Below, piece after piece: positions 913-37,890 of a DNA stretch of 64,000 nucleotides; positions within the stretch are counted from its first letter, which is position 1, and every line of letters starts with the position of its first letter. A model generated the notes under the pieces. That model was given only the letters and a program-made list of their open reading frames with translations. It searched no databases and was not told the origin of the DNA. Position numbers and translations under genes: made by a program. This DNA is from Bacteroidales bacterium (GTDB taxonomy: Bacteria; Bacteroidota; Bacteroidia; Bacteroidales; P3): assembly GCA_017960605.1 (NCBI GenBank), contig JAGCYV010000034.1, positions 7,192 through 71,191 of the forward strand, in the 5' to 3' direction.

Positions 913-920
913 GGCGGTTG

Positions 921-13952: not shown

Positions 13953-13968
13953 AATGTATCAGTTTTTG

Positions 13969-17230: not shown

Positions 17231-17300
17231 ATCTTGTTTTGTTATATCTTTTGTAATATCGGTTCCTTTCTTATCTATCCATCAACCCCTTGTCCATAAT

Positions 17301-17355: not shown

Positions 17356-17356
17356 A

Positions 17357-19077: not shown

Positions 19078-19101
19078 TATTCAGTCTGTATTATTTTGTT
19101 T

Positions 19102-20280
19102 CTATCTGATTTTCAAAGTCGAGAGGGTAAAGACCGCCAACAGGATGGCGATGATGACAAAACGCATGACCACCTTCTCCTCGGCCACGCCCTTCTTCTG
19201 ATAATGATGATGTAAAGGCGACATGAGGAAGGGGCGCTTCTCCACCGGCACCGGCACTCCGACGGGGAGTTTGTGCTTGCGGCGGTAGCGTTTGCAGCCC
19301 GCGGTCTGGATAATCACCGAGAGGTCTTCGACAAGATAGATGCCGCAGAGCAACGGAAGGAGTAACTCCTTACGAATCAGCACTGCAAAAACAGCAATAA
19401 TGCCGCCGATGGCCAGCGAACCCGTGTCGCCCATAAAGATTTCAGCAGGGTGGGTGTTGTACCATAGGAAGCCCAGCGTGGCTCCCACAAAGGCGGTGCT
19501 GAAGACAGCCAGTTCACCGATATTGGGCAGGTAAATGATATTCAAGTATCCGGACATGATGATGTTGCCGCTCACCCATGCCAGCAGTGCCAGAGCACCG
19601 CCATTGACAGCCGCCACACCAGTGGCGATACCGTCGATGCCGTCGGTGAGGTTCGAAGCGTTGCTAACAGCGGTGACAATGAAAATGACAATTAGGACAA
19701 AGACAACCCAAGCATAGTCGGCGGCCCACGGACCCATCCACGACACCAGACACGTGTAGTCAAATTCGTTGTTCTTCACAAAGGGGATAGTGGTCTTCAT
19801 GGGGTCGGTGATGTCGGGATGGAAGGTGATGAGCAGTCCCACCGCCAGGCCCAACAATATTTGGCCAAAGACCTTATACTTGCCTGGCAGACCAGCCTTG
19901 CCACGGGTCTTTTTCAGATAGTCGTCGAGGAAGCCCACCATGCCCATCCACACCGTGGTGCCAATCATAATCAGCACATAGATATTGTCCAACTTGGCAA
20001 AGAGCAGTGTTGGGATGACAATGGCCGCCAGAATGAGCAGACCGCCCATCGTGGGTGTCTTGGCTTTGCGTTCGGCACCTTCAAGTCCCAACTCCATACG
20101 CACCTCGTCCATTATTCCCAGCCTGTTCTGAATCCAGCGGATGAACGGTTTTCCCAGCACCAGCATGATGAATAACGAGGTGATGATGCTGGCCGCCGAA
20201 CGGAACGAGATGTACTGAAAGACACCCGCGCCAGGCACTCCCAGACTATTATGCAACCAATCAAACAGATAATATAACAT
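19102..20280 (-). CDS. mraY: phospho-N-acetylmuramoyl-pentapeptide-transferase
   Basis: 392 aa. Motifs GFLDDYLK, NLTDGIDGIA and MGDTGSLAIGG. Confidence 0.95.
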   Translation of the reverse strand: MLYYLFDWLHNSLGVPGAGVFQYISFRSAASIITSLFIMLVLGKPFIRWIQNRLGIMDEVRMELGLEGAERKAKTPTMGGLLILAAIVIPTLLFAKLDNIYVLIMIGTTVWMGMVGFLDDYLKKTRGKAGLPGKYKVFGQILLGLAVGLLITFHPDITDPMKTTIPFVKNNEFDYTCLVSWMGPWAADYAWVVFVLIVIFIVTAVSNASNLTDGIDGIATGVAAVNGGALALLAWVSGNIIMSGYLNIIYLPNIGELAVFSTAFVGATLGFLWYNTHPAEIFMGDTGSLAIGGIIAVFAVLIRKELLLPLLCGIYLVEDLSVIIQTAGCKRYRRKHKLPVGVPVPVEKRPFLMSPLHHHYQKKGVAEEKVVMRFVIIAILLAVFTLSTLKIR

Positions 20281-20292
20281 AACTTTAAAACT

Positions 20293-21747: not shown

Positions 21748-21755
21748 CTGTAACT

Positions 21756-24041
21756 TTATCTAAGAGTCAATTCCACCCGTGTTCCATGCTTCGCGTTGGT
21801 ACCAGCCTTGGGCGTTTGCGACAGCACGCGTCCGTAGCCATTCACCTTTGCACGGTAACCCATCTCCTGTAGCAACTCCACGGCATCCTTGGCTGTCATT
21901 CCGTTGCAGTTGGGAATCCGTCCGTGGGCAGGTTCATAAGGATAATACTGCGCTGGAGTGCTGTCAGTCGCTTCCCGATAGACCACCCAGCGAGCCATCG
22001 TGTCGGCAGTACGGTACGGCTGACGCAAGGTCTTGTAAAGTTTTCGCATCTGGCTTTGGTCGGCACGCTCCGCCGTGGGACGTTGCAGAGCCATCGCACT
22101 GTCTTCTTCCAACTTCGGCCACACCGATTTCACCGCCCCATCGCTCAATCTCTTATCCACGGCCACCACACAGTCGCTGATGGCTTTGAACACCGTGGCT
22201 GCCTGACGGCCATAGTACGGGATGTTTTCCAACACCACCAGACAGGTGTAACGCGGATTCTCCGAGGGGAAGAAACCCGCAAAGGAGGCATTGTATCGCT
22301 TGACATTGGCATAACTGTGTACTGCCGTACCAGTCTTTCCAGCAATGCCGTAGGTGTTATTCTTGATATTGTTGCCCGTACCGTGCTCCACCACACCCTC
22401 CAGCATGGTACGCATCATGCGGGCACTCTCGCGGCTACACATCCTCGGATTGAGCACGACAGGTTTGTTTTCAATCAATCGGTCACCGTCCAACACACCT
22501 TTGCAGAATATCGGCTTCACCATACGTCCATCGGCGGCCAAGCCATTATAGAAGGTGATGAGTTGCAGTGCACTGACACGGGTGGAATAACCGTAACAGA
22601 AATTCAGAAAGTCTCGGTTAGAAGCATGCAGGTTGTTGATACGCGAGTCGTACTCACGGGCTTTTACGTCGGGATGCAGCTTCTCGTAGGGGAACATGCG
22701 CTCCACCAAATGGCGTAGCGTATCGCGTCGGTCGGCATAGAGACGCCAGCCCAAGTCACTCATACCCACGTTCGACGATTGCTCGATAACCTCTCGTACA
22801 TTCAGCGAGTCGCGACCTGCCAACGTGTGGTCGTCCTTGATTTCACCATACTTTCCACCAAAGTTCTTGTAACCCGAGGCAAGCATCATGGCGGTGTCAA
22901 TCTTGATGGAGGGATCGTTGAGCATGGCAGTGAGAATGACGGTCTTAAAGGTAGAACCAGGCTCATATACGTCACTCACTGCCACATTGCGGTCACGTAC
23001 CTCCAGATAGTCACGCAAGGAAGTGTCCACAGCCAAATTAGCACACGCCAGCACATAGCCCGTCTGCATCTCCATCAGTATGGCACATCCTGCCGAGCCG
23101 CCGTATTGCCGCAACGCCCTCCGCAACTCGCTCTCGGCAATGTCCTGATAGCGGGTGTCAATGGTGGAGACAATGCTGCGTCCATTCACCTTGCCCTGCA
23201 ACACGATGGTATCCACCTTGTCCAGGTCGGTACGCACCGGCACCTCTTTCCTCACATGCTGTTCCTCTGGCAGCCAGATACCCTTGGTCAGGCGGCGGCA
23301 GCGGAACAACCCGTCCTGGCCACGCAAGATACTGTCGTATGCCCCTTCCAAACCCGTGTAAGTAGAACTCTCACGTTGGTTCTGGAATCCAATGGTGTTG
23401 CCAGCCATATTGCCGTAAATATGGGCACGCTCTTGATGCACCACACTCTGGCCATCGACCTGACGCACCACCCCTCGACTCCACCCCGGCAGATGGCAGA
23501 TCTGCAGCCACACTGAGTAGGGCACATGACGCTCTACCAAAAAGCAGCGGCGAGGCTTCTCTTTGACGCGCTCGCCCGCGAGGCGGTCACGGTAATATTG
23601 AGCCGTCTTCTGTGGCATCGCCTCCGACAACAGAGTGCACATACTGTCGAGATAAGTATAGAAATTGGTATCAGTGATGGGACCGCTCTCAATGGGCAGG
23701 CCTTTCCTGTCATACTTCGGATGGCCGTACTCGTCAAGTTCCACAACATTGTGAAGATCCAAGTACAGGTCGCATTCGGTGACGTTGGTAGCCAGTATCT
23801 TGCCGTCACTGGAGTAAATATTGCCCCTTCGGGCAGGGTCTGTCCGAACATCGGCCTCGCGCTTCTCGCCTCGGGTCCTCCATTCGTCGCCGTGCACCCA
23901 TTGTATATTGATGATGCCGGCCACAATAGCCACTCCCACACCCAAAGTGAGCAGTAGGTAGAGCACCGTCGTGCCGACCTTCATTCTCTTATCATTATTA
24001 TTATGTTCCTGTTCTTTCAATTTACGACTTTCAAATTTCAA
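21756..24041 (-). CDS. ftsI: penicillin-binding protein (FtsI-type transpeptidase with a C-terminal PASTA-like domain)
   Basis: 761 aa from a TTG at 24041. The first ATG is at 23984 (MKVGTTVLYLLLTLGV, TM helix). Transpeptidase motifs STFK (EPGSTFKTV), SSN (EQSSNVG) and KTGT (AGKTGTA). The C-terminus NGMTAKDAVELLQEMGYRAKVNGYGRVLSQTP is PASTA-like. Confidence 0.88.
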   Translation of the reverse strand: MKFESRKLKEQEHNNNDKRMKVGTTVLYLLLTLGVGVAIVAGIINIQWVHGDEWRTRGEKREADVRTDPARRGNIYSSDGKILATNVTECDLYLDLHNVVELDEYGHPKYDRKGLPIESGPITDTNFYTYLDSMCTLLSEAMPQKTAQYYRDRLAGERVKEKPRRCFLVERHVPYSVWLQICHLPGWSRGVVRQVDGQSVVHQERAHIYGNMAGNTIGFQNQRESSTYTGLEGAYDSILRGQDGLFRCRRLTKGIWLPEEQHVRKEVPVRTDLDKVDTIVLQGKVNGRSIVSTIDTRYQDIAESELRRALRQYGGSAGCAILMEMQTGYVLACANLAVDTSLRDYLEVRDRNVAVSDVYEPGSTFKTVILTAMLNDPSIKIDTAMMLASGYKNFGGKYGEIKDDHTLAGRDSLNVREVIEQSSNVGMSDLGWRLYADRRDTLRHLVERMFPYEKLHPDVKAREYDSRINNLHASNRDFLNFCYGYSTRVSALQLITFYNGLAADGRMVKPIFCKGVLDGDRLIENKPVVLNPRMCSRESARMMRTMLEGVVEHGTGNNIKNNTYGIAGKTGTAVHSYANVKRYNASFAGFFPSENPRYTCLVVLENIPYYGRQAATVFKAISDCVVAVDKRLSDGAVKSVWPKLEEDSAMALQRPTAERADQSQMRKLYKTLRQPYRTADTMARWVVYREATDSTPAQYYPYEPAHGRIPNCNGMTAKDAVELLQEMGYRAKVNGYGRVLSQTPKAGTNAKHGTRVELTLR

Positions 24042-24505
24042 TTTTCAATTTCATACGGCGGTCCGCTGGTGATGCCCACGCCCGTTTCTTTCAAGTCCTC
24101 GGCAATTTGTGAAATCTTCACGCTCTGCTGGTATTGTTTTTGCATCTGTATGCGATGCTCGCGCAGGTAGTTGATGCGTTCCTCTGTAGCGGCCTTCTCA
24201 CGACTCAGGCTCTCCACACGATAGCGGTTGCTCACTATCAGCAGCAGATACACCAGACAGAGCAGCACCAACGGTATTTGTTTCAGCACCAACTTGTCAG
24301 CCAGAACATCGCCACCCAACACTTTGCCGATACCTCGGGCCGCCTTGTCGGATGGTCTCACCTTCCCCTCCTTCTCTTCGGGTGTGAGGGATGTGGCCGT
24401 TTCGACAGACTCAACCTGCTCCTCTCTCTTTTCTAAAGAGGGCTCGGGGGTGGAACTATTTTCCAGTCCTTCCTCTACCACCTTTTCTCTGAACCTGTTT
24501 CCCAT
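24038..24505 (-). CDS. ftsL: FtsL-like cell division protein
   Basis: 155 aa between rsmH and ftsI. An acidic N-terminal tail, one TM helix (IPLVLLCLVYLLLIV) and a coiled-coil-like C-terminus. Confidence 0.65.
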   Translation of the reverse strand: MGNRFREKVVEEGLENSSTPEPSLEKREEQVESVETATSLTPEEKEGKVRPSDKAARGIGKVLGGDVLADKLVLKQIPLVLLCLVYLLLIVSNRYRVESLSREKAATEERINYLREHRIQMQKQYQQSVKISQIAEDLKETGVGITSGPPYEIEN

Positions 24506-24525
24506 ATTAACTTAACACTAAACAC

Positions 24526-25470
24526 TTAGCACTTAACACTCATTTTCTCCCCTACCCTCAACATCGCACTGCGGGCACGGCTGTTCCGAGACACCTCCTC
24601 CTCCGAGGCGGTGCATTTCTTCACCTGGCGCATCGGCGACAACGGGTTGCCGTAGAAATCCTTCTCCACCTTGCCCTCGAAGTTGCCGCTCCGCATGAAG
24701 TTCTTCACCAGACGGTCTTCCAACGAGTGGTAGCTGATTACCACCAGACGGCCACCATCCTCCATCAACTCGGCAGCCTGCTGCAACATCACTTTCAAGG
24801 CCTCCAACTCTCCGTTCACCTCGATACGCAAAGCCTGGAAAAGCATCGCCAAATACTTGTTTTCCATTCCACGAGGCAGATGCTTCGACACGGCCGCCTT
24901 CAGGTCGCCTGTGGTCACTATCTCTGCTTCCGCTCTCCACTTCACTATGGCACGGGCCATCTGCCTAGCATTCGGCAACTCGCCGTAGAGACGCAGCAAC
25001 CGGCACAATTCCTCCTCGTCGCTGTTGTTCACCAATTCGCGAGCCGACAGCGACGCCTGTCGGTTCATACGCATATCCAACTCGCCGTCGAGACGGGTTG
25101 AAAAACCCCGCTCAGCCGTGTCAAACTGATGGCTGCTCACCCCCAGGTCGGCCAGCACACCATCCACCCTCCGCACCCCGTGCAACCGCAGGAAAGCCTT
25201 CAAATGGCTGAAATTCTCATTGATGAACGTAAACGAAGGCCCACCACCGACGCATTCACGCATCAACGCACTTGCACACTCTGCCGCGTCCCCGTCCTGG
25301 TCGAAGGCATAAAGCCTGCCCCCGGAACCGAGCGCCTTGAGGATGGCACGCGAATGGCCGCCGCCGCCGAAGGTCACATCCACATAGATGCCTTCAGGAC
25401 GTATGGCGAGACCCTCGACGGCCTCGGCAAGCATCACCGGTGTATGGTACTCATTGGTCATTCGTCGCAA
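24526..25470 (-). CDS. rsmH: 16S rRNA (cytosine1402-N4)-methyltransferase
   Basis: 314 aa. YHTPVML and DVTFGGGGHS motifs. An alternative ATG lies 9 nt downstream. Confidence 0.93.
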   Translation of the reverse strand: MRRMTNEYHTPVMLAEAVEGLAIRPEGIYVDVTFGGGGHSRAILKALGSGGRLYAFDQDGDAAECASALMRECVGGGPSFTFINENFSHLKAFLRLHGVRRVDGVLADLGVSSHQFDTAERGFSTRLDGELDMRMNRQASLSARELVNNSDEEELCRLLRLYGELPNARQMARAIVKWRAEAEIVTTGDLKAAVSKHLPRGMENKYLAMLFQALRIEVNGELEALKVMLQQAAELMEDGGRLVVISYHSLEDRLVKNFMRSGNFEGKVEKDFYGNPLSPMRQVKKCTASEEEVSRNSRARSAMLRVGEKMSVKC

Positions 25471-26385: not shown

Positions 26386-28890
26386 ATGTTGTCAATGAAG
26401 AAACTACAAATCATACTCAGCCTCCTGTCGCTGCTCCTGCCCGCCACAGCGCAGCAGAACAATCAAGCCTATGAAGGGCGCGACTTCTGGGTGGGATTTA
26501 TTGCAGATGGCGGCAGCGAGCAACCGAAACAGTTGAGTCTGATAGCCTACGGTGACACAGCCTGTACCATCACAGCCAACAACCCTCTGATGGGCTGGCA
26601 ACAAACAATCTCACTCTCGGCGGGTTCTAGTGTCGCCATCACCCTGCCTGTTTCCGCCCAGCCCGAACATTACTCATCCACCGAAACCAAGGGATTCCAT
26701 ATCACCTCCACGGCCCACATCCACCTCATTGCCCAGCTTGGCTCGCTTGCCTCGCGCGGAGTTTCGAGCATTCTTCGCACCGAAGCCCTAAGAACCCGTT
26801 ATATCGTACTCGACTATCCGTCCGATCCCACCCTAATTAATTACACTGGCGCTTCTGTTTGCATCGTGGCCACAGAGAACAATACCACCATCGAGTTCAC
26901 CCCGCCATGCAACCTGTACGCCCTGTCAGGCGACCCTACCGCACCCACTGCCAACTCTCCTACCACCCACACTTTCGCCACTGCCGGACAAACACTAACC
27001 CTCATGGCCAACAGTGCCAATGCCACCCTCAGCGGCATGGAAATCACTTCAGACAAACCCATTGCCGTCTTTCAAGGGAACCGGCTAACCGGCGTACCCC
27101 ATTCAACCCCCAGTGGCGATCTTTTGTATGACCAAACAATACCTGTAGAACAATGGGGCCAAAGTTATGCGCTGGTACCCACCCGAGGACGCTCCGTTGG
27201 CGACCGGGTGCGTGTGGTGGCCGACTCAGCCTGCACCGTTACTCTCAGCACCGGTAGTTCCTACACCCTGACCAGTCATGGAGCGACAGAATTCGACCTG
27301 CCTGCCAACCAACCCTGCATCCTCACCTCCACCAAACCTGTTAGCGTGGGCCTCTGCTCCAAAGGTTCAACCTATGGCGGAGAGCTTGGAGACGGGTCGC
27401 TGGTCATGCTGACTCCTATGGAACATACTGTAACCCAGGGTCGATTTATCACCTTCGCCTCACAACGAATCAACAGTTGGTTTGTGACCGTCACGACCAA
27501 CCAGCCCTCCACCATGACGCTTGATGGGAGCAACATTTATTCCCAATTCGGTTCTATTGGCTCCACCGGCTATAGCTACGCCCGCATCAACATAACAAAC
27601 GGAGTCCATTCACTTGCGAACAGCGCCGGTTCCTTCACAGCCTGGACCTACGGCATTGGCAATGTGGAGAGTTACATATACAACGTCGGTTTCGCACTCG
27701 ACTCCATTCCACCACAAGTGCACGACACCGTAGAATACTACGACACCGTGTGTAAAGGGGAGGCTTACAACAGGTACGGGTTCATCATCAACGAAGCCCT
27801 GACCGCAAATGTTGGAACCTTTACCCACCAAAGAGTTGCCTCCACGGAAGACACACTATTTCACCATGTGCTTCACCTCACCGTGCTGCCCGTGCCGGAA
27901 GAGACACACCTGACAGAGAACATCGTCATCGGCGACACGCTGTCCTATGCCGATACCCTGCTGACCACAGCGGGCACCTACATGTTCCATCTCACCGCAG
28001 CCAACGGATGCGACTCCGTCGTAACCCTACAACTGACCGTTCATCTGCCCCAAGACACGGTGGAATACTACGACACTCTCTGCCTTGGCGAGAGCTACGA
28101 CAGCCTCGGTTTCAGCGCCACCCCCAACGTCTCCGGCCCCATTCTCTTTGAACGTAACTCGGTAACCGACAGCGTCATCACCCACATTGAGCTACACCTG
28201 CAAGTGTGGCCCACCTACGATATCGAGGTCACCCAGACCCTCACCGGCGGTGAGGCCCTGCACTTCGCCGACACCCTTATCTACACGGCAGGTGAATACC
28301 TATTCCATTTCCTCACCGTACATGGCTGCGACTCTGTGGTCACACTGAAAGTCATCGACTGCTCTGAAGCAAGAAGACCTTGTGTGAACCTGAACCGCGA
28401 CTTTGTGGATTACGACACCCCGGTGCTGGTCCTCTCCGACTGCACCGACGGCAGCACCTCGTCGCTGTGGAGCTTCGACGACGGTGTCAATATCCGACTG
28501 CCGCGGGCACGCCGACAGTTCCATCCCCCACTACCTGACAGTGTCTCCATCAACCTGCACACCTGCGACTCCATCGGTTGCTGCACCGATACCACATTCA
28601 GCATCCCCTGCCGCATCCGCTCCGTATGGTTCCCCAACGTTTTCACCCCCGATGCCGAAAACAACAACCGCTTCGGCTGCCACACCTCGATGGATGTCGT
28701 CGAATTCGAACTCTACATCTACAACCGCCTCGGCCTACTGGTCTATAGCACCAACGACATCAACGCTCCCTGGGACGGCTCCCACGACGGAACTCCCTTG
28801 CCGCAAGCCACCTATGCATACCGATGGCACCTGCGCGACCAGTACAACGACATCCACTTCGGCACTGGTACAGTCACTCTTCTCAGATGA
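26386..28890 (+). CDS. T9SS type B C-terminal sorting domain protein (IgGFc-binding-like N-domain, 2 x 110-aa Cys modules, PKD-like segment, CTD)
   Basis: 834 aa. Signal peptide MKKLQIILSLLSLLLPATAQ. The N-terminal ~440 aa starts YEGRDFWVGF and ends ...SYIYNVGFAL, which resembles the IgGFc-binding N-terminal domain family. Two tandem DTVEYYDT-C...GCDSVVTL modules follow. The C-terminus VWFPNVFTPDAENNNRF...IYNRLGLLVY...WDGSHDGTPLPQATYAY...GTGTVTLLR is a type B CTD. Confidence 0.85.
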   Translation: MLSMKKLQIILSLLSLLLPATAQQNNQAYEGRDFWVGFIADGGSEQPKQLSLIAYGDTACTITANNPLMGWQQTISLSAGSSVAITLPVSAQPEHYSSTETKGFHITSTAHIHLIAQLGSLASRGVSSILRTEALRTRYIVLDYPSDPTLINYTGASVCIVATENNTTIEFTPPCNLYALSGDPTAPTANSPTTHTFATAGQTLTLMANSANATLSGMEITSDKPIAVFQGNRLTGVPHSTPSGDLLYDQTIPVEQWGQSYALVPTRGRSVGDRVRVVADSACTVTLSTGSSYTLTSHGATEFDLPANQPCILTSTKPVSVGLCSKGSTYGGELGDGSLVMLTPMEHTVTQGRFITFASQRINSWFVTVTTNQPSTMTLDGSNIYSQFGSIGSTGYSYARINITNGVHSLANSAGSFTAWTYGIGNVESYIYNVGFALDSIPPQVHDTVEYYDTVCKGEAYNRYGFIINEALTANVGTFTHQRVASTEDTLFHHVLHLTVLPVPEETHLTENIVIGDTLSYADTLLTTAGTYMFHLTAANGCDSVVTLQLTVHLPQDTVEYYDTLCLGESYDSLGFSATPNVSGPILFERNSVTDSVITHIELHLQVWPTYDIEVTQTLTGGEALHFADTLIYTAGEYLFHFLTVHGCDSVVTLKVIDCSEARRPCVNLNRDFVDYDTPVLVLSDCTDGSTSSLWSFDDGVNIRLPRARRQFHPPLPDSVSINLHTCDSIGCCTDTTFSIPCRIRSVWFPNVFTPDAENNNRFGCHTSMDVVEFELYIYNRLGLLVYSTNDINAPWDGSHDGTPLPQATYAYRWHLRDQYNDIHFGTGTVTLLR

Positions 28891-31730
28891 AACACCGATG
28901 CCCAATACTAATATTTCTGCTGCTGCCACTCCTTGCGGCGGCACAAGTCAGCTGTCCTCCTTTGGCATTGCCGTGGTTCGAGGACTTCGAAACGGGCTTC
29001 ACTCAGAACGGCGGATGGATCAACACCACCCTCGACAGCACCTACCACTACGACGACCACTGCTGGACACACTGCCTGCTCCACTATCCCGGCTGGCGCA
29101 GCATGACCACCTTCGAATACCTCTCCGTTACGCCTCCCGTCGTACGCAACAACTTGTTGCACATTGAGAAATCCTACTGGGACTTCAACGGCACAGAGCC
29201 CGGCGAACTCACTGCCGTCACGCCTCCATTGACCGCACCTCCTGTGGCGGTGCGTTTCCATGCCTATTGCATCATGGCCTGTGTCCACGGTCCAACCATC
29301 ACCGACCAGCTGCATGACACCGTCTTTGCCGACGGGGTGCCGGTGGCTATCGGCTATATCACCGACAACAACGACCCGATGGGCAGTTATATCCCTTTGG
29401 ACACGGTCTATGTCCGCAGTTATGACTTCCTCAACAAGAGCGTGGTATGCTCCGACCTGCACGGCATCACCATCCCCCCGCCACGGCGGCTGATATTCCG
29501 TGTAGCCGAACCGATGGCCGACTGGCGCGGCAACGTCATGATTTATATCGACAGCCTGACCGTCAGTAACGACACGCTAAACTGCGACAACTACCACCGT
29601 CCAACCACCTGCGACAATATCACCCTCGGACGTGAATTCTGGGGCATGAACCTGTGGAACACTGGATGGCGGGGAAGTATGCAATACCGTGAAGTGACCG
29701 CCATCCGACGCAACAGCCTCACCCTCACCATCGAAGACGTGGATGGACTCACCTTCACCGCCAACTACGCCTATCCCTCAGGCTTTGATTCCTATATTTC
29801 TTTTGGCATCCAAAACGTCATCCCCTCCGTTCAGACTCTCGGAGTACCCTACGACGGTGGTTTCCGCGTCCTTGCCGACAGTGATATCGAAGTAGTGGCC
29901 CACAGCTACGACAAGGGTAACTTCGAAACCTCCAAGCTGTTGGACATCTCCGCTCTCGACACGCACTATATCATCCAAGACTATCCTCCCTCCGACCCCT
30001 GCCGCACACAGGTGGGCTTTGTGGCCACCGAGGACAGCACGGTGCTCACAATGACCCTGCCCTGCGAGACCGAGAACAGCGCCGGCGACCCCTATCCTGC
30101 CGGCACCACGCTGACCACCACCCTCATGCGGCGACAGAGCCTGCTGCTGGTCAGCCGTAGCACCAACGCTTCCTACTCTGGCATGGAAGTACGCTCCAAC
30201 GGCAAGCCTTTCGCCGCCTTCTCCGGTGCCGTGTGGACCGCCGTGCCCAACACAGCGACAAATGCCGACCGCGACCACCTCTTCGAGCAAATCATCCCCG
30301 TCAAATACTGGGGACGCGAGTTCGTGGTGGCGGGAGCGTCGGCACAACAGGGCTACAACCGCCTGCGCATCACCTCGTCGGCCGACGGCTGCATCGTGGC
30401 CGTCGATGGAGTGGTCATCGACATCCTGGCCCGCGGTGCCACCTGCGACCACACCCTGCCGGCGCAGAGCCAGGTGCTCATCACCTCCACCCAGCCCGTG
30501 CTCGTGACCCTCTACCTTGACAGCTACAGCCTCAGCGGAAACATCGGCAATCCCGCCTCGGTCACCATACCGCCCGTCAATCGCGGCATCTGCCGCAGTC
30601 TCTTCCTCAACTTCCATAACGAGCAACCTCTGCAACACTACCTCATTATCGTCTGCGACACAGCCTACGACTCCGCTTTGCTCCTCGACTCACTGCCCCT
30701 CCCCTCCTCCGACTCCGTCGCCACCATCAATCACTATCGCGTGCACCGCATTCCCGTCTCCAGCGTTCTCCATTATGGTTACCACAGCATCGAGACCTCC
30801 GGCGGCGAGCCCTTTGTCGGCTACGTCTATGGTGTGGGCGACCATGAAAGTTACGCCTTCATGCTGGGATTCAACCCCGTACCGCAACTCGACACCGTCA
30901 CTCTCACCGACACCGCCTGCCAGCACCAAGCCTATCGGCGCGGTCCGTTCGACCTGCCGGCCAGGGCCCTGTCCGATGTCGGGACCTTCCTCTTCACCGC
31001 CGAGATGAGCACTGAAGAGGAGAACAGCCTCTACTGCCTGCAACTCACCGTGTTGCCGTCGCCCCACATCCACCTCCATGACACCCTCATACCCGGGGAT
31101 ACCCTGTGGGTAGGCGACAGCGCCTTGACGCAACCCGGCACCTACACCCTCCGCCTCACAGCCACCAACGGATGCGACAGCGTCGTCACCGTCAGCCTCG
31201 CCTCCTGCCTGCCCGAGGCCTGCTACAGCCTCAGCCGACCCTTCATCGACTACGACCATCCCGTGGTCACCTTCACCGACTGCACCGAGGGCGCCACCCT
31301 GAGCCAATGGCTCTTCAGCGACGGCAGCACCTACACGGGCTCGCCCCTGAGGCACCAGTTCCGCCACCAGCTTCCCGACAGCCTCAACGTGACCCTCCAC
31401 ACCTGCAACCGTCTCGGCTGCTGTGCCGACACCACCTTCCCATTGCCGTTACAGATCCGCTCCGTATGGTTCCCCAACACCTTCACACCCAGTGCCGAGA
31501 GCAACAACCGCTTCGGAGCCGTGACCTCGATGGAAGTATCCGAATACGAACTCGTTGTCTTCAACCGACGTGGACAGGAGGTCTTCCACACCACCGACAT
31601 CCGCATCCTGTGGGACGGCACCTTTGGCGGCACACCCCTGCCTCAGGGCTCCTACGTCTATCGCTGGAATCTGCGCGACACCACCGACCTGCAGCAGCAT
31701 GGCACCGGTACCGTCACCCTGCTGCGATGA
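28887..31730 (+). CDS. T9SS type B C-terminal sorting domain protein (paralog of the upstream gene with an extra N-terminal domain)
   Basis: I prefer the ATG at 28887 (MKHRCPILIFLLLPLLAAAQ). It overlaps the upstream TGA (ATGA). The N-domain begins LPWFEDFETGF, which is choice-of-anchor-J-like. Next come GREFWGMNLW (IgGFc-binding-like), one ...NGCDSVVTVSL module, a PKD-like segment and the type B CTD (VWFPNTFTPSAESNNRF...GTGTVTLLR). Confidence 0.85.
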   Translation: MKHRCPILIFLLLPLLAAAQVSCPPLALPWFEDFETGFTQNGGWINTTLDSTYHYDDHCWTHCLLHYPGWRSMTTFEYLSVTPPVVRNNLLHIEKSYWDFNGTEPGELTAVTPPLTAPPVAVRFHAYCIMACVHGPTITDQLHDTVFADGVPVAIGYITDNNDPMGSYIPLDTVYVRSYDFLNKSVVCSDLHGITIPPPRRLIFRVAEPMADWRGNVMIYIDSLTVSNDTLNCDNYHRPTTCDNITLGREFWGMNLWNTGWRGSMQYREVTAIRRNSLTLTIEDVDGLTFTANYAYPSGFDSYISFGIQNVIPSVQTLGVPYDGGFRVLADSDIEVVAHSYDKGNFETSKLLDISALDTHYIIQDYPPSDPCRTQVGFVATEDSTVLTMTLPCETENSAGDPYPAGTTLTTTLMRRQSLLLVSRSTNASYSGMEVRSNGKPFAAFSGAVWTAVPNTATNADRDHLFEQIIPVKYWGREFVVAGASAQQGYNRLRITSSADGCIVAVDGVVIDILARGATCDHTLPAQSQVLITSTQPVLVTLYLDSYSLSGNIGNPASVTIPPVNRGICRSLFLNFHNEQPLQHYLIIVCDTAYDSALLLDSLPLPSSDSVATINHYRVHRIPVSSVLHYGYHSIETSGGEPFVGYVYGVGDHESYAFMLGFNPVPQLDTVTLTDTACQHQAYRRGPFDLPARALSDVGTFLFTAEMSTEEENSLYCLQLTVLPSPHIHLHDTLIPGDTLWVGDSALTQPGTYTLRLTATNGCDSVVTVSLASCLPEACYSLSRPFIDYDHPVVTFTDCTEGATLSQWLFSDGSTYTGSPLRHQFRHQLPDSLNVTLHTCNRLGCCADTTFPLPLQIRSVWFPNTFTPSAESNNRFGAVTSMEVSEYELVVFNRRGQEVFHTTDIRILWDGTFGGTPLPQGSYVYRWNLRDTTDLQQHGTGTVTLLR

Positions 31731-31969: not shown

Positions 31970-34132
31970 ATGAAACTTCGTACTTTAGTGATTGCAATGG
32001 TCCTTACGGTGATGCTTCCCAGCGTGGCACGCGCCGACGAGGGCATGTGGCTCCTGTCCCTAATTGGGAAGAACTACGACGACATGCGGCGCGCCGGCTT
32101 CCAGCTAACGCCCGAGGACATCTACAGCGTGAACCAAAGCTGCCTGAAAGACGCCATCGTGGGTCTCGGCAACGCCGGCAGCCCATTCTGGCACTTCTGC
32201 ACCGGTGAAATTATCTCGTCGAAAGGCCTGGTGAGCACCAACCACCACTGCGGCTACGGCAAGCTGCAAGAGCACTCCACCGTGGAACACGACTACCTGC
32301 GCGACGGCTTCTGGGCCTACACCATGGAGCAGGAGTTGCCCAACCCGGGCCTGACGGCCTCCATCCTGGTGCGCATGGAAGATGTGACCGCCAAGGTGAA
32401 GGAATCGCTGCGCGACGACATGAGCGAGGGCGACCGCGAGGCGGCCATCAAGAAGGTATGCTCCCAGATCGAGGAGGAAGCCGTGGAAGGCACCAAGTAT
32501 GCCGCCAAGGTGAAACCCATGTTCAACGGCAACCAGTTCTTCCTGTTCGTACATATCATCTACCGCGACGTACGTCTGGTGGGAGCTCCCCCGAGCTCGA
32601 TGGGCAAATTCGGCGGCGACACCGACAACTGGAGCTGGCCGCGCCACACCTGCGACTTCTCCATGTTCCGCATCTACACCGACAAGGACGGCAACCCCGC
32701 CGACTACAGCCAGGACAACATCCCCCTCGAACCCAAACACCACCTGCCCGTGAGCGCCGGCGAGTTAAACGACGGCGACTTCGCCATGGTGATGGGCTTC
32801 CCTGGCACCACCGACCGCTTCCTGACCAGCTACGGCCTCGAGGAGACGATGGACATCACCAACAAACTGCGCTATGAACTGCGCACCGTGAAAATCAACA
32901 TCTTGCGCGAAGAGATGGCCGCCGACCAGGCCACCCGCATCAAATACGCCTCCAAGTATGCTTCCTGCTCCAACTACTGGAAATACAGCAACGAGCAGAA
33001 CAAAGCCCTGAAGAACCTGAACACCATGGGTGTGAAAAAAGAGGTGGAGAAGGAATTCAACAACTGGGCCCGCTTCCAACGCAGCCCCAAATACAGCAAC
33101 GCACTGGGCCTCATCAAGAAAGGTTACGCTGCCCGCCGCAGTGCGGAGGAAGCCAACATGTATGTGCTGGAGGGCCTGCTGACCGGCCCCGAGGCTCCGA
33201 TGTTCGCCACCCGCCTGTGCCGCTCGTTCCAACGCGACCTCGAGAAGGACAAGGAGGCCGACCTGAGCCGCTACGAGGCCTATGCCGCCAACTTCTTCAA
33301 AGACTATGACGAGCGCGTCGATCGCCGTCTGTCGGCTGCATTCTTCGAGTATGTATATACCCACATGAATCCCGACATCTGCCCGAATTTCCTCAAGGAT
33401 GCCCATAAAAAATACAAAGGCAACTGGGAGAAATATGTGAACGACCTCTACAGCAAGAGCATCTTCTCCAACCAGGAGAACCTCGGAAAATTCCTCCTCA
33501 AACCCAACGCCAAGCAATTGGAGAAAGACCCGCTGGCCGCCGCCGGCATGGAGGCCATGGACATCTACTTCGGCCTCGACGCCTCGGTGTCGCAGGAATC
33601 CAAAGACGAGCTGCAACGCGGCATACGCGACTTCACCGACGGTGTGCTGCAAATCAACGAGGGCAAGAAACTGATGGCTCCCGACGCCAACTCGACCATC
33701 CGCCTCACCTATGGCAACGTGATGAGCTACGAGCCCAAGGACGGCCTCATCGCCAAACACTACACCACCATGAAGGGAGTCATCGACAAGGAAGGCCCCG
33801 TGGGAACCGAGTTTGAAGTGCCTGAGCACCTGAAGGAGCTCTACGCCCAGAAGAACTTCGGCAACTATACCAACCGCCGCGGTGAGATGCCCACCTGCTT
33901 CATCACCAACAACGACATCACTGGTGGCAACAGCGGATCTCCCGTCATCAACGGCAAGGGTGTACTCATCGGACTGGCCTTCGACGGCAACAGCGAGGCC
34001 ATGAGCGGCGACATCGACTTCGAGGAGAACCTACAACGCTGCATCTGCCTCGACAGCCGCTACATGCTGTGGGTCATCGACGTCTATGCCGGTGCCCGCA
34101 ACCTCATTGAGGAAATGGATATCGTAAGATAA
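31970..34132 (+). CDS. S46 family dipeptidyl-peptidase (DPP7/DPP11-like)
   Basis: 720 aa. Signal peptide, then ADEGMWLL...TNHHCGY (catalytic His region) and a C-terminal GGNSGSPV (catalytic Ser). These are characteristic of peptidase family S46. Confidence 0.88.
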   Translation: MKLRTLVIAMVLTVMLPSVARADEGMWLLSLIGKNYDDMRRAGFQLTPEDIYSVNQSCLKDAIVGLGNAGSPFWHFCTGEIISSKGLVSTNHHCGYGKLQEHSTVEHDYLRDGFWAYTMEQELPNPGLTASILVRMEDVTAKVKESLRDDMSEGDREAAIKKVCSQIEEEAVEGTKYAAKVKPMFNGNQFFLFVHIIYRDVRLVGAPPSSMGKFGGDTDNWSWPRHTCDFSMFRIYTDKDGNPADYSQDNIPLEPKHHLPVSAGELNDGDFAMVMGFPGTTDRFLTSYGLEETMDITNKLRYELRTVKINILREEMAADQATRIKYASKYASCSNYWKYSNEQNKALKNLNTMGVKKEVEKEFNNWARFQRSPKYSNALGLIKKGYAARRSAEEANMYVLEGLLTGPEAPMFATRLCRSFQRDLEKDKEADLSRYEAYAANFFKDYDERVDRRLSAAFFEYVYTHMNPDICPNFLKDAHKKYKGNWEKYVNDLYSKSIFSNQENLGKFLLKPNAKQLEKDPLAAAGMEAMDIYFGLDASVSQESKDELQRGIRDFTDGVLQINEGKKLMAPDANSTIRLTYGNVMSYEPKDGLIAKHYTTMKGVIDKEGPVGTEFEVPEHLKELYAQKNFGNYTNRRGEMPTCFITNNDITGGNSGSPVINGKGVLIGLAFDGNSEAMSGDIDFEENLQRCICLDSRYMLWVIDVYAGARNLIEEMDIVR

Positions 34133-34191
34133 TCCATAACCTATATTATTGGATATCGTAAGATAATCCATAACCTATGTTATTGGATATC
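34117..34191. repeat. 34-bp tandem duplication (2.2 copies) spanning the last codons and stop of the S46 gene
   Basis: GGATATCGTAAGATAATCCATAACCTAT[A/G]TTATT occurs at 34117-34150 and 34151-34184, with a partial third copy at 34185-34191. One mismatch. Confidence 0.95.
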
Positions 34192-34196: not shown

Positions 34197-36455
34197 ATGA
34201 AACAAGTCCAGCGACAGCAACTGCAACAGAAGTTCTCGCCTCAGCAGATACAGCTGATGCGGCTGTTGCAGTTGCCTGTCACCGACTTGGAACAGGCCAT
34301 CAAAGAAGAAATCGAGAAGAATCCGTTGCTTGAGGCCGAAACACAGGACGAACAGCCACTGCCCGACAACGACCACAGCGACTGGGATGCCGACGAGGAG
34401 GACGATTTCGGCTACGACTATCGCGAACACCTGGAGAGCGACCCCAACGCAATGAGACGCGAGTTTGTGGTGAGCGACAACCAGTCGGCCAACGAACGGC
34501 TGATGCAACAACTTTCCCTGCGTCCCCTCTCCGAACGACAACGCCTGATAGCCACAGAAATTATCGGCACCCTCGACGATGCCGGCTATTTAGGCCGCAG
34601 CCTGGACCTGATTGCCAACGACATGGCTTTCCGGCAAGGCATCGAGGCCACAGTGTCGGAGGTGGAAGAAGCCCTGGGCATCGTGCAAAGCCTCGACCCT
34701 GCCGGCATCGGCGCTCGCTCGCTGCAAGAGTGTCTGTTGCTGCAACTGGGAAGGAATTCAGAACTCAACATTCAAGATTCAACCCGTACAATCGCCACTG
34801 CAATTGTACGCGACCTCTTCGACGACTTTGCCAACCACCGCTACGAACGCATCTGCGAGAGCCTCGACATCAGCGAGGAAGAGTTTGAAGAAGCCGCCGA
34901 CATCATCCGCCACCTAAACCCCAAGCCCGGCGGCTCCTCGGCAGCCGACAACGACGGCGCCACTGCTGTCATCCCCGACATCGTAGTCACCCAACACGAC
35001 GGACAGTTGCAGTTCTACTTGAACGATAGTCATCTGCCGCGGTTGAGCCTGAACACCTACTATACCGAGATGCTGCATGAGATGGAACAACAGCAAGGTG
35101 CCGACCGCTCCACATTGCAGTTCCTCCGCTCCAAACAGGCCGATGCGCAAGGCTTTATCGACCTGCTCCAGCAACGCCACGACACCATTGTTCGCATCAT
35201 GCGCTACCTTGCGAAGCACCAAAGGAGATTCCTGCTCACAGGAGACCCCGACCAGATGGTGCCCCTGAGACAACGCGAGGTGGCCGAAGCCACAGGACTG
35301 GACATCAGCACCGTGAGCCGTATGGCCAACAGCAAATACTTGCGAACCGACTTCGGCACCATCGCCCTCAAAGAATGCTTCTCCAAGGGCATGGCCACCG
35401 ACAACGGAGAAGAAGTGGCCATCGATACCATCAAGCAACGATTGTCGGACCTCATTGATAAAGAAGACAAACAAAATCCGCTGTCGGACGATGCAATAGC
35501 CAAACTGCTCAACCAACAGGGGCTTCCCTTGGCTCGCCGCACAGTGGCAAAATACCGTGAACAACTGGGGCTGCCGGTGGCTCGCCTGCGTCGCACACTG
35601 ACGATTCTGCTCATGTTGTTCCTGCCCTGCTTCATGCAGGCCCAGATGTCGTACTACGACTCCATTATCGCAGTACGCCTGCGAACCACCGAGAAGAAAG
35701 CCGAGCCAAAACAACAGGAGAAACACAAAGCACCGGAAGCAAAAGCAGAAAAGAAAACCGCCGTTCCCACAACCGAGCCCATAGCAATCACCAAACTGGA
35801 GAGCTATATGGTTCCGGCTTGGTACGACGCTTTTCCGCATAACCGTGTCAATCCGCTAGGCCGCACCAAAGTGGATATGCTGCCGGATGAGATCAACTTG
35901 AAACTGGCGGCCGACACCTCGGACTTCTGCTTCCCTGTGCGCAATCGCAAAACCAGCAACTATGGGTGGCGATGGAACCGAGGTCACCACGGGGTGGATA
36001 TCGCCCTGCGGGTGGGAGACCCCGTGCATGCAGCTTTCAGCGGCACCGTTCGCATAGCCTCACGCATGGGCGGTTATGGGAACTGCGTGGTACTGCGGCA
36101 CGCCAACGGATTGGAAACCCTCTACGGTCACCTGTCGAAAATCAACGTCAAACGAGGCCAACAGGTGAATGTCGGCGACATCATCGGCCAAGGAGGGAAC
36201 ACCGGCAACAGCACAGGTCCGCACCTGCACTTCGAATGCAGGTTCCTCTACCAACCCTTCGACCCTGAATGGATACTTGACTTCGAACGCTACAACCTGC
36301 GCACCCGCAGGCTGCACCTCGACAAGAGCTATTTCGGCATCCGTCAGCCACGAAAGGGAGAAAAAATGGAATACAAGGCCGACAACAGCATCATTCGCGA
36401 GACCAAGAAACGTCCCAAGAACCAGCCGACCACCATCAATAGCAAAGACTTTTAA
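34197..36455 (+). CDS. rpoN: RNA polymerase sigma-54 factor fused in frame to a TM/signal-like segment and an M23 metallopeptidase domain
   Basis: 752-aa uninterrupted ORF. Roughly residues 1-466 are a complete RpoN (MKQVQRQQLQQKFSPQQIQLMRLLQLP...; HTH; RpoN box ARRTVAKYREQLGLPVARLRR). Then come TLTILLMLFLPCFMQAQ, a Lys/Glu/Pro-rich linker and an M23 domain with intact HHGVD and GPHLHFE motifs. I checked the junction codon by codon (35520-35650) and found no stop. In-frame candidate internal starts are GTG 35577 and ATG 35613. Confidence 0.8.
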   Translation: MKQVQRQQLQQKFSPQQIQLMRLLQLPVTDLEQAIKEEIEKNPLLEAETQDEQPLPDNDHSDWDADEEDDFGYDYREHLESDPNAMRREFVVSDNQSANERLMQQLSLRPLSERQRLIATEIIGTLDDAGYLGRSLDLIANDMAFRQGIEATVSEVEEALGIVQSLDPAGIGARSLQECLLLQLGRNSELNIQDSTRTIATAIVRDLFDDFANHRYERICESLDISEEEFEEAADIIRHLNPKPGGSSAADNDGATAVIPDIVVTQHDGQLQFYLNDSHLPRLSLNTYYTEMLHEMEQQQGADRSTLQFLRSKQADAQGFIDLLQQRHDTIVRIMRYLAKHQRRFLLTGDPDQMVPLRQREVAEATGLDISTVSRMANSKYLRTDFGTIALKECFSKGMATDNGEEVAIDTIKQRLSDLIDKEDKQNPLSDDAIAKLLNQQGLPLARRTVAKYREQLGLPVARLRRTLTILLMLFLPCFMQAQMSYYDSIIAVRLRTTEKKAEPKQQEKHKAPEAKAEKKTAVPTTEPIAITKLESYMVPAWYDAFPHNRVNPLGRTKVDMLPDEINLKLAADTSDFCFPVRNRKTSNYGWRWNRGHHGVDIALRVGDPVHAAFSGTVRIASRMGGYGNCVVLRHANGLETLYGHLSKINVKRGQQVNVGDIIGQGGNTGNSTGPHLHFECRFLYQPFDPEWILDFERYNLRTRRLHLDKSYFGIRQPRKGEKMEYKADNSIIRETKKRPKNQPTTINSKDF

Positions 36456-36472: not shown

Positions 36473-36961
36473 ATGAAAAAGACCAACCTCTCCGACTACG
36501 ACCCGACGGCAGTCCCCGACGGCAGTCTTTATACTGTCGCCGTAGTCGCTGCCGAATGGAATCCGGAAGTGACTGGCGCCATGCTCAACGGAGCCGTCAG
36601 TACCCTGCGTGAGCATGGGGTCAAAGAGGAGAATATCATCGTGAGGCATGTGCCCGGCACCTTCGAACTGACCACCGCCGCCGACCTGCTGCTTGGCAGC
36701 GACCCCTCGTTGAATGCTGTCATCTGTATTGGATGCGTCATCCAAGGAGAAACTCGTCATTTTGAATTCATCTGCCAAGCGGTTTCCCAGGGACTTAGCA
36801 ACGTTGCCATCAAACACAGCCGTCCAGTCATCTTCAGCGTTCTCACTTGCGACACCATGCAGCAGGCCCTTGACCGTGCCGGTGGACGTCACGGGAACAA
36901 AGGTGTGGAAGGAGCCGTCACCGCCTTGAAGATGTGCAAATTCAAAGACCAATGCGAGTAG
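36473..36961 (+). CDS. ribH: 6,7-dimethyl-8-ribityllumazine synthase
   Basis: 162 aa. Lumazine synthase pattern (VAVVAAEWNPEVT...VPGTFELT...GCVIQGETRHFEF). Confidence 0.9.
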   Translation: MKKTNLSDYDPTAVPDGSLYTVAVVAAEWNPEVTGAMLNGAVSTLREHGVKEENIIVRHVPGTFELTTAADLLLGSDPSLNAVICIGCVIQGETRHFEFICQAVSQGLSNVAIKHSRPVIFSVLTCDTMQQALDRAGGRHGNKGVEGAVTALKMCKFKDQCE

Positions 36962-37890
36962 TCTATTTCGGCACTCCCGACTTTGCCGTCGAAAGTCTCG
37001 ACGCCATCATGCAATCGTCGCGACATGAGATGGCGGCTGTGGTCACCGTGCCCGACCGGCAAGCAGGCCGTGGCCAGAAGGTGGTCTATAGTCCTGTGAA
37101 ACAATATGCCCTCGACCACCAGCTGCCTCTGCTGCAACCGGAGAAACTACGCGACACACAGTTTCTCGAGGACCTGCAAGCCATCAAGGCCGACATCTTT
37201 GTCGTTGTAGCTTTCCGCATGCTGCCCGAGGCAGTATGGGCGATGCCCCCCCACGGGACTTTTAACCTCCACGCCTCCCTGCTGCCGCGCTACCGTGGCG
37301 CCGCCCCCATCAACTGGGCAATCATCAACGGCGAACAAGAAACCGGAGTAACAACATTCCTATTGAATCATCAGATAGACGAGGGGAATTTGCTCTTACA
37401 GGAATCCACTCCGATAAGCACTCGAGAGACTGCCGGGAGTCTGCACGACCGATTGGCTGCCATGGGACGCTCGCTGGTGGTCCGTACACTCGATGCTTTG
37501 GCCGATGGAACAGTTACTCCCCGTCCTCAAATCGGAGAAGCCTGTCCAGCCCCAAAAATATTCAAAGATGACTGCCGTATTGACTTTTCGCACACCTCCC
37601 AAGAAATAGATTGCTTTATCCGAGGTCTCTGCCCCTACCCCGCAGCCACCCTCACCTTAATTAATCCCAAAGGGGAATCTATTCCATTTAAAATATTGGC
37701 CGCTGAATCCATGTCGGAGATGCACGAATACCCTTGCGGCACACTGATTTGCGATGGAAAAAGAGTGCTAAAAATCGCCACAGCAGATGGTTTTATCCGC
37801 ATTTTAGAGCTCCAAATGGCTGGAAAAAAGAAAAATAACGTTGAGGACTTCCTTCGCGGAAACAATATAACAAACTGGAAATTAGTATAA
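36952..37890 (+). CDS. fmt: methionyl-tRNA formyltransferase
   Basis: MRVVYFGTPDFAV start (ATG 36952; the ORF track extends to 36934) and the HASLLPRYRGAAPINWAI motif. Confidence 0.9.
   Translation: MRVVYFGTPDFAVESLDAIMQSSRHEMAAVVTVPDRQAGRGQKVVYSPVKQYALDHQLPLLQPEKLRDTQFLEDLQAIKADIFVVVAFRMLPEAVWAMPPHGTFNLHASLLPRYRGAAPINWAIINGEQETGVTTFLLNHQIDEGNLLLQESTPISTRETAGSLHDRLAAMGRSLVVRTLDALADGTVTPRPQIGEACPAPKIFKDDCRIDFSHTSQEIDCFIRGLCPYPAATLTLINPKGESIPFKILAAESMSEMHEYPCGTLICDGKRVLKIATADGFIRILELQMAGKKKNNVEDFLRGNNITNWKLV

Follow-up and report, generated by a model that had tools for sequence, protein, structure and literature searches.

A sigma-54 gene fused in frame to a signal peptide and an M23 peptidase in uncultured Bacteroidales, and its probable working as a natural polyprotein

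Results

The fused reading frame

The window analyzed here is a 64,000-nucleotide (64-kb) stretch of the Bacteroidales assembly GCA_017960605.1 (contig JAGCYV010000034.1, positions 7,192 to 71,191 of the forward strand), and its subject is a single open reading frame (ORF) at 34197-36455 on the plus strand that encodes both the RNA polymerase factor sigma-54 (RpoN) and a peptidase of family M23. Translation of the window shows this frame to be open throughout, with no stop and no frameshift, as a first-pass annotation made from the sequence alone had claimed. The 752-residue product begins with a complete sigma-54; a hydrophobic segment of 16 residues and a disordered linker come next, and an M23 peptidase closes the chain (Table 1). 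All of the sigma-54 family domains (PF00309, PF04963 and PF04552) score above their Pfam cutoffs, the NCBIfam rpoN equivalog model TIGR02395 aligns end to end over residues 7-466 with 400.7 bits against a cutoff of 277, and PF01551 reaches 113.6 bits against a cutoff of 28.7, in agreement with the domain content given in the annotation. After the RpoN box the protein reads EQLGLPVARLRR, then TLTILLMLFLPCFMQA/QMSYYDS (the slash marks a predicted cleavage site here and below), then a Lys/Glu/Pro-rich stretch and finally the M23 module. The window sigma-54 runs on for 286 residues past the usual RpoN end instead of stopping there as members of its family do.

Both modules have the conserved residues and the predicted fold of their families. 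Across 81 aligned fused homologues, 39-88% identical to the window protein, region I of sigma-54 is almost invariant and the M23 metal and catalytic residues H597, D601, H645, H676 and H678 are invariant; the HxxxD (HHGVD) and HxH motifs, described as intact in the first-pass annotation, are indeed intact in the window protein. An AlphaFold2 (AF2) model built on the 81-sequence alignment has a mean predicted local distance difference test score (pLDDT) of 79 and a predicted template modelling score (pTM) of 0.43, with confident sigma-54 and M23 modules, no packing between them, one helix at residues 462-499 and pLDDT below 50 for residues 502-542. In Foldseek searches the N-terminal part matches the sigma-54 chains of RNA polymerase complexes over about 455 residues at probability 1.0 (9msg_M, E 2e-32), and the C-terminal part matches StM23, Csd1, NMB0315 and ShyA, with a root-mean-square deviation (rmsd) of 1.8 Å over 123 alignment columns for StM23 (9gy1). 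By its fold, its zinc ligands and its catalytic histidine the peptidase module fits the LytM-type M23 family and is predicted to be catalytically competent.

Table 1. Features of the fused locus and of its neighbors, in window coordinates except where another locus is named
Feature	Residues	Nucleotides	Strand	Remarks
Whole ORF: sigma-54, signal peptide, linker and M23 peptidase	1-752	34197-36455	+	752 aa; coordinates include the stop
Sigma-54 region I (activator-interacting domain, Sigma54_AID)	2-46	34200-34334	+	PF00309, E 5.7e-13
Sigma-54 core-binding domain (CBD)	91-289	34467-35063	+	PF04963, E 5.5e-56; AF2 pLDDT >90
Sigma-54 DNA-binding domain (DBD)	308-466	35118-35594	+	PF04552, E 2.1e-46
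RpoN box, ARRTVAKYR	446-454	35532-35558	+	inside the DNA-binding domain
In-frame GTG	V461	35577-35579	+	candidate internal start of the first-pass annotation; not conserved
ARLRR	462-466	35580-35594	+	basic RpoN C-terminal tail, apparently doubling as signal-peptide n-region
Hydrophobic h/c-region, TLTILLMLFLPCFMQA	467-482	35595-35642	+	length, -1 Ala and +1 Gln conserved
Predicted signal peptidase I site	A482/Q483	35642/35643	+	A/Q pattern
Conserved N-terminus of the predicted mature peptidase, QMSYYDSIIAVRL	483-500	35643-35696	+	SYYDS
Variable Lys/Glu/Pro/Ala-rich linker	501-536	35697-35804	+	dN/dS 0.70; low AF2 pLDDT
M23 peptidase module	537-752	35805-36452	+	N-extension VPxWYDAFPxNRVNP conserved
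Pfam Peptidase_M23 domain	596-690	35982-36266	+	PF01551, E 4.9e-33
M23 HxxxD motif, GHHGVD	597-601	35985-35999	+	intact
M23 HxH motif, HLH	676-678	36222-36230	+	intact
ribH		36473-36961	+	downstream syntenic gene
fmt		36934-37890	+	downstream syntenic gene
PAP2-like gene, unfused locus L082		4373-4993		adjoins rpoN 3' end
PAP2-like gene, unfused locus L091		4384-5004		adjoins rpoN 3' end

Recurrence of the fusion

A protein identical to that of the window is encoded on three contigs in public assemblies. When the whole protein was searched against clusters made at 90% identity, the best 120 clusters all carried the three sigma-54 domains together with M23, at 67-100% identity and lengths of 723-781 residues; these are referred to as the window clade, and named members among them appear as 'MAG: RNA polymerase factor sigma-54 [Bacteroidales bacterium]' (MAG, metagenome-assembled genome). 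Comparison of the C-terminal 287 residues with 50%-identity representatives revealed divergent fused proteins of 760-839 residues (P0123-P0128 and P0144), and a query with P0126 yielded 119 fused proteins among the 120 clusters listed (50-100% identity, 782-846 residues, P0126 itself and P0124 counted), which are referred to as family 2. The fused architecture is present in at least 239 protein clusters (120 from the window clade and 119 from the P0126 list), which are 50-100% identical and all come from uncultured Bacteroidales. At the DNA level the junction is open in all 11 loci examined from different assemblies, one further fused locus (L093) was recovered in a metagenome scan, and at least three species-representative genomes, all of them rumen MAGs (RUG13693, RUG11969 and RGIG3667), carry the fusion. 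The GC content shows no discontinuity across the junction.

This recurrence in many clusters and DNA loci rules out sequencing error, which was one of three options offered in the first-pass annotation; the comparison with relatives that it had proposed shows that unfused rpoN normally has its stop and that the fusion recurs widely. The fusion is genuine, old and evolutionarily stable across a large clade of Bacteroidales that are uncultured and come mostly from rumen and gut. The sole non-fused entry among the 120 clusters listed for P0126 is P0400 (500 residues, from a 2.4-kb European Nucleotide Archive contig), in which a family-2 RpoN with its signal peptide stops 12 residues past A/Q (...AQAQTPQKATKERIVC); it may represent a frameshift, a pseudogene or an assembly error.

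The RpoN tail and the hydrophobic segment

The 161 unfused Bacteroidota rpoN copies examined, which represent 69 distinct tails, encode a protein that almost always terminates 22-23 residues past the first residue of RRTVAKYR, most commonly as ...PVARLRKEL followed by the stop, in line with the first-pass annotation, according to which RpoN normally stops shortly after its box. The fused proteins have ...PVARLRR-x-[LIV] at the same positions and the chain then goes on. As the fused tail matches the unfused one up to the last residues, RpoN is complete and the extension begins at its end. Two positions differ between the groups: tail position 20 is Lys in 64 of 69 distinct unfused tails versus Arg in 64 of 66 window-clade tails, and tail position 21 is Glu in 47 of the 69 versus none of the 66. 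The replacement of K20 by Arg and the loss of E21 fit a recruitment of the RpoN tail as the n-region of a signal peptide, and the proposal of the annotation that the same codons specify the RpoN C-terminus and the signal peptide agrees with the coincidence of the ARLRR tail and the n-region in the fused forms.

The stretch from RLR[RK] to the -1 residue is 15-21 residues long (median 16) in the 119 of 120 window-clade proteins in which it was measured. Its sequence is free to vary yet remains hydrophobic, with a mean Kyte-Doolittle value of 2.6, and Pro, Gly or Ser is common within it. The -1 residue is Ala in 112 of 119 proteins (94%), with Ser, Gly or Thr in the remainder, and Gln occupies +1 in 119 of 120 (99%). 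Family 2 has a similar pattern of RLRR-x-L-K, 15-20 hydrophobic residues and A/Q-QPxKESY[YF]DS. The standalone orthologues of the peptidase (P0129, P0130, P0132, P0133, P0134 and P0136) carry N-terminal signal peptides of comparable lengths that end in ...A/Q, and the SYYDS motif, which is invariant or nearly so in the fused forms, corresponds to QSYFDSIV in the standalone P0129. A small residue at -1 and Gln at +1 constitute the Bacteroidetes 'Q-rule' for substrates of signal peptidase I (SPI), in which the Gln is cyclized to pyroglutamate (PMC5837995, PMC10653852). Signal peptides of this kind also have a basic n-region and an h-region of about 10-15 residues, and the segment agrees with them in all of these features. 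By its pattern of conservation the segment is homologous to a cleavable Sec/SPI signal peptide, with its shape kept and not lengthened toward a typical membrane anchor. A lipoprotein signal was also considered, given a Cys in the h-region of the window protein (LFLPC), and rejected, the Cys being absent from most relatives.

Selection on the fused parts

The ratio of nonsynonymous to synonymous substitution rates (dN/dS) was taken as the median of Nei-Gojobori pairwise estimates for eight window-clade coding sequences. It is 0.19 for RpoN (residues 1-466), 0.86 for the h-region, 0.30 for the conserved SYYD segment, 0.70 for the linker and 0.11 for the M23 module, and the low values in both modules indicate that purifying selection keeps sigma-54 as well as the peptidase. 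Synonymous differences among the eight sequences are near saturation, with a proportion of synonymous differences (pS) of 0.57-0.65, from which it follows that the window clade is old.

Origin of the fusion

The closest standalone relative of the peptidase, P0129, is a protein of 354 residues with 51% identity, M23 and LysM domains and the N-terminal signal peptide MSRKNKTLHIIPANIARYAITFILCMVASYTCCA/QKKKKQSYFDSIV. Its loci (L082-L085) contain rpoN (483 residues), a gene for a 206-residue protein, the M23/LysM gene, ribH, fmt and HU, and a second unfused lineage, P0136 (L091/L092), has the same gene order. The window and all other fused loci examined have rpoN::M23, ribH, fmt and then HU where the contig reaches that far. 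The product of the 206-residue gene is a polytopic membrane protein and a divergent phosphatase of the PAP2 superfamily, with PF01569 matching 12 of 14 members of its family (best E 1.2e-6) and a PDB profile search giving weak LpxE and PgpB matches. In most unfused Bacteroidota loci (L005-L081, L093-L172) rpoN is directly followed by such a PAP2-like gene, of about 200 codons and about six transmembrane segments, which is missing from all fused loci. To our knowledge, the pairing of rpoN with a PAP2-like gene, which is conserved across the phylum, has no published description.

The difference in gene order between fused and unfused loci within a conserved neighborhood shows an origin by deletion, in which the rpoN stop, the PAP2-like gene and the peptidase start and n-region were removed. 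By the same synteny the fused copy is the orthologue of canonical rpoN and not an extra paralogue; neither a second rpoN nor a PAP2-like gene is found within the 64-kb window. A recent loss of the rpoN stop, as suggested in the first-pass annotation, is thus right as regards the lost stop and wrong as regards its age, the loss being ancient at a pS of 0.57-0.65, and the event also deleted the PAP2-like gene and the n-region of the peptidase signal peptide. Simple stop loss between genes that are adjacent phylum-wide was rejected as an origin, because no M23 gene lies within 4 kb of rpoN in 77 unfused Bacteroidota loci; the ancestral order rpoN-PAP2-M23 was found only in Bacteroidales relatives.

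The number of events was examined in neighbor-joining trees (200 bootstraps) made separately for RpoN and M23. The window clade and family 2 group together in the RpoN tree (99.5%), and P0144 groups with unfused relatives with 100% bootstrap in both trees. The P0144 locus has upstream NTP_transferase and tRNA-synt_2 genes in common with the unfused L091, and the nearest RpoN relatives of P0144 (about 63-65% identity, about 476 residues) are all unfused. Its junction, RLRK/GFFLALFLF...FG/QK, is of the same kind as that of the main group and mirrors the signal peptide of the unfused P0134, MAKKGFAFLIL (MAKKGFAFLILILVIGLVTMA/Q). The placement of P0144 among unfused relatives shows that the fusion arose at least twice, with one ancient origin for the window clade and family 2 and one young singleton present on one contig. 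In the M23 tree, a distance tree with long branches, the unfused P0129 falls within the group of fused peptidases, and further fusion events beyond these two may have taken place. A C-terminal LysM domain is present in P0129, P0136 (weak match), P0123-P0128 and P0144; the window clade has none by precomputed Pfam, and its proteins end in ...INxKDF. Among the family-2 clusters listed for P0126, only a minority have a LysM match, which suggests either that retention of the domain in family 2 is patchy or that the domain is divergent.

Genomic neighborhood

Sigma-54 acts with bacterial enhancer-binding proteins (bEBPs) of the AAA+ type at -24/-12 promoters. Neither the 64-kb window nor the fused loci encode a GAFTGA-type bEBP, and matches in the window to the -24/-12 consensus TGGCAC-N5-TTGC are no more frequent than expected by chance. 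The fusion sits in the core chromosome, with the neighbors named here at window positions 8134-25470 on the minus strand and 26386-31730 on the plus strand. Upstream of it is a dcw-type cell-division and cell-wall cluster that includes RsmH/MraW and a penicillin-binding protein transpeptidase with a PASTA domain, and adjoining are two large proteins with IgGFc_binding and CHU_C (type IX secretion) domains. Just before the rpoN start, the 34-bp unit TGGATATCGTAAGATAATCCATAACCTATATTAT is present in 2.2 tandem copies with 97% identity (34116-34191), and the repeat carries the last codons and the stop of the upstream S46 peptidase gene (..MDIVR and stop) into the intergenic region. In another Bacteroidales MAG (GCA_031260565.1, JAISLH010000025.1; L089, positions 1-5000) a Cas13a gene and a long CRISPR array take the place of rpoN in front of the standalone M23-ribH-fmt-HU genes, the array being visible as a periodic repeat in all three translation frames.

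Discussion

The continuous reading frame, its recurrence and origin, the purifying selection on both halves and the conserved signal peptide together describe a genuine, old fusion at the canonical rpoN locus that, on balance, probably works as a natural polyprotein. The whole ORF would be translated as one chain, of which the sigma-54 part would fold in the cytoplasm while the internal signal peptide would be targeted to Sec and insert with its N-terminal side in and its C-terminal side out, RLRR remaining on the cytoplasmic side. SPI would then cut at the conserved A/Q between A482 and Q483, freeing an active M23 peptidase into the periplasm, probably with a pyroglutamate N-terminus, and leaving a hydrophobic C-terminal tail of sigma-54, about 16 residues long, in the inner membrane. 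From there sigma-54 could be freed by a site-2 protease, by a signal-peptide peptidase or by extraction, or it could be functional while tethered. RseP, the E. coli site-2 protease, is known to eliminate remnant signal peptides (PMC8144685, PMC10470546). The stability of the fusion across hundreds of species-level clusters, together with a second origin that converged on the same junction, argues that the arrangement is cheap and that the junction is constrained by both functions.

Several considerations weigh against processing as a polyprotein. Full translation, export, cleavage and the fate of sigma-54 are deduced from sequence conservation. The segment starts at residue 462 of 752 and is not at the N-terminus, where a signal peptide is expected, and a location 466 residues from the N-terminus is usual for signal-anchors and unusual for cleavable signal peptides. 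The persistence of the fusion could reflect a ratchet rather than a benefit: since the RpoN tail became the signal-peptide n-region, separation of the two genes would take the simultaneous gain of a stop and a start, and the case shows a way for a gene fusion to become locked in. Separate initiation of the peptidase is also plausible in some lineages from their codons at or near the junction, and in the window clade it is possible but unsupported. A GTG is present in the RpoN box (RRTV) in 8 of 11 loci, and Met replaces Gln at RpoN-box position 10/11 (KYREMLGIP) in 65% of distinct family-2 sequences (P0288-P0405), compared with 6% of unfused RpoN and 5% of the window clade. This Met, which also occurs in the independent fusion P0144, lies about 12 codons upstream of RLRR in family 2 and may be the internal ATG start of a peptidase preprotein. 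In addition, P0125, P0126 and P0128 have M-K, M-L-K or TTG-K exactly at the junction. These features favor a reading in which overlapping genes yield two separate proteins, with translation of the peptidase preprotein starting mainly inside the 3' end of rpoN (at GTG 35577 in the window, at the ATG of box position 10/11 in family 2) and with the read-through chain as a tolerated by-product that is cleaved or degraded. The in-frame GTG at 35577 that the first-pass annotation had pointed to is present and codes for V461, and GTG stands at V461 in four of eight window-clade loci. As a conserved internal start of the window clade it was nonetheless rejected, as the codon is not conserved: among 119 window-clade proteins residue 461 is Val in 110, Ile in six, Thr in two and Met in one, so that nine relatives depart from Val, and the codon is ACA in L004, ACG in L175 and ATT/ATC in L173/L174. 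In L174 there is no ATG, GTG or TTG from the GTG inside RRTV to past the cleavage site, and the only such codon in L173 is a TTG well inside the h-region. Val461 is equally conserved in unfused RpoN, which makes its conservation uninformative on start function, and the codon-level GTG test has low power, every RpoN having Val conserved at this position and GTG being a common codon for it. The Bacteroidetes -7 promoter motif TAnnTTTG was not found on the plus strand between 34000 and 36500, and there is accordingly none inside the ORF. Above all, the lack of a stop codon means that every ribosome on rpoN enters the signal peptide and the peptidase, so that sigma-54 cannot be made without the extension whether or not a second start is used, and overlapping genes are an unlikely account of the locus. 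A programmed +1 or -1 frameshift that would end RpoN was likewise rejected, because the +1-frame stop is not conserved: it follows RLRR by 0-7 codons in seven loci of the 11 and by 16-89 codons in the remaining four.

A second alternative, also raised in the first-pass annotation, is that the protein is a stable, membrane-tethered bifunctional sigma-54, with the hydrophobic segment as an uncleaved type II signal-anchor and the M23 domain in the periplasm. Sigma-54 would then be active or held inactive at the membrane, and its release or activity could be coupled to the state of the envelope or the peptidoglycan, on the model of regulated intramembrane proteolysis. A continuous and conserved ORF is what such a protein would need, the cytoplasmic RLRR satisfies the positive-inside rule, AF2 predicts a single continuous helix over 462-499, the independent fusions share the same junction, and the membrane-protein gene found 3' of unfused rpoN across the phylum hints at a link to the envelope. 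However, 15-21 residues including a polar c-region, with Pro, Gly or Ser common, are short for a stable anchor, and their length is unchanged from that of the cleaved signal peptides of standalone orthologues. The near-invariance of -1 Ala and +1 Gln amid free variation is the signature of selection for signal-peptidase cleavage, and a DNA-bound holoenzyme would be in an awkward steric position, with only about 12 residues between its RpoN box and the bilayer. Signal-peptide length and the A/Q site make a processed polyprotein more likely than a permanently tethered protein, and permanent tethering is considered improbable. A related and rather unlikely proposal is that sigma-54 is a membrane-anchored pro-sigma that becomes competent only after Sec translocation, SPI cleavage and clipping of its tail, or that it serves membrane-proximal DNA only; if the pro-sigma proposal is true, the sigma-54 regulon would be tied stoichiometrically and conditionally to secretion and envelope status, a mode of control distinct from activation by bEBPs. 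The sequences come solely from metagenome assemblies, which bears on whether the fusion is an artefact of assembly or sequencing, or else a chance fusion of a decaying rpoN pseudogene. The same junction recurs, however, in no fewer than 239 clusters, which stem from many different studies and assemblers, and in the DNA of 11 independently assembled loci, the dN/dS of RpoN is low, region I and the RpoN box are essentially invariant and there is no break in composition at the junction, all of which renders an artefact or a chance pseudogene exceedingly improbable.

Sigma-54 is usually described as a soluble factor under the sole control of AAA+ activators. Should hundreds of Bacteroidales species be able to produce it solely as the N-terminal portion of a precursor exported by Sec, two readings are left. 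In the first, signal peptidase divides a polyprotein encoded on the bacterial chromosome into a transcription factor for the cytoplasm and an enzyme for the periplasm; in the second, sigma-54 can be membrane-tethered or activated by proteolysis, and its production would also be fixed at 1:1 with that of a cell-wall hydrolase. Neither reading was found described for sigma-54, and full-text literature searches returned no description of sigma-54 fused to an M23 peptidase or to a transmembrane or signal segment, in keeping with the supposition of the first-pass annotation that the architecture was undescribed. Both domains and the signal peptide are ordinary in themselves; the architecture and its implication for sigma-54 biogenesis are new. 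As public annotation gives only 'RNA polymerase factor sigma-54', surveys of rumen and gut MAGs by function miss the peptidase.

Comparison with known systems

The fused protein shares with canonical sigma-54 of E. coli and K. pneumoniae (PDB 9msg, 8f1j, 7qv9 and 5nwt) the three domains, region I and the RpoN box, and its gene occupies the orthologous rpoN locus. Canonical RpoN is soluble and ends within about 15 residues of the RpoN box, whereas the fused form continues into a predicted periplasmic enzyme. The standalone M23/LysM peptidases P0129 and P0136, annotated as 'peptidoglycan DD-metalloendopeptidase family protein', have an orthologous module with 51-57% identity and share the mature N-terminus Q..SY[YF]DS, an h/c-region ending in A/Q and the downstream genes ribH-fmt-HU. 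They differ in having their own start and Met-Lys/Arg n-region, a PAP2-like gene between the peptidase and rpoN, and the LysM domain that the window clade has lost.

Among sigma factors of the sigma-70 family, extracytoplasmic function (ECF) sigma factors with C-terminal transmembrane or anti-sigma-like extensions also have a sigma factor covalently joined to a membrane-spanning C-terminus, and such fused extensions have been reviewed (PMC8103513). They are unrelated to sigma-54, and their extensions are regulatory, without a cleavable signal peptide and enzyme. The pro-sigma-K and pro-sigma-E proteins of B. subtilis are membrane-associated sigma precursors that need proteolysis and are activated by SpoIVFB or SpoIIGA (PMC6242693, PMC12632252), a likeness that would be one of functional analogy only. 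They too belong to the sigma-70 family, with a short N-terminal pro-sequence and no exported domain, whereas the extension of the fused sigma-54 is C-terminal, contains a Sec signal peptide and carries a periplasmic enzyme. The RseA/RseP system has a comparable topology, with the N-terminus in, a sigma-related domain in the cytoplasm, a single membrane segment and then a domain in the periplasm, and there a periplasmic cut followed by an intramembrane cut would free the cytoplasmic part; only the topology is compatible here. In that system the membrane protein is an anti-sigma factor that binds its sigma non-covalently, while here sigma itself would be the substrate and SPI would take the site-1 role.

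The flavivirus C-prM and hepatitis C virus core-E1 polyproteins are split by host signal peptidase, and in the hepatitis C virus case signal peptide peptidase then frees the core protein. As proposed for the fused sigma-54, these polyproteins have a cytoplasmic protein that binds nucleic acids, then an internal signal peptide and then an exported protein, and the first product keeps a membrane-embedded tail, although these are viral systems of the eukaryotic endoplasmic reticulum. We know of no bacterial chromosomal counterpart of such a polyprotein with a sigma factor. B. subtilis pro-sigma-K is the closest analogy among sigma factors, and the signal-peptidase processing of hepatitis C virus core-E1 is the closest working analogy for the fused sigma-54.

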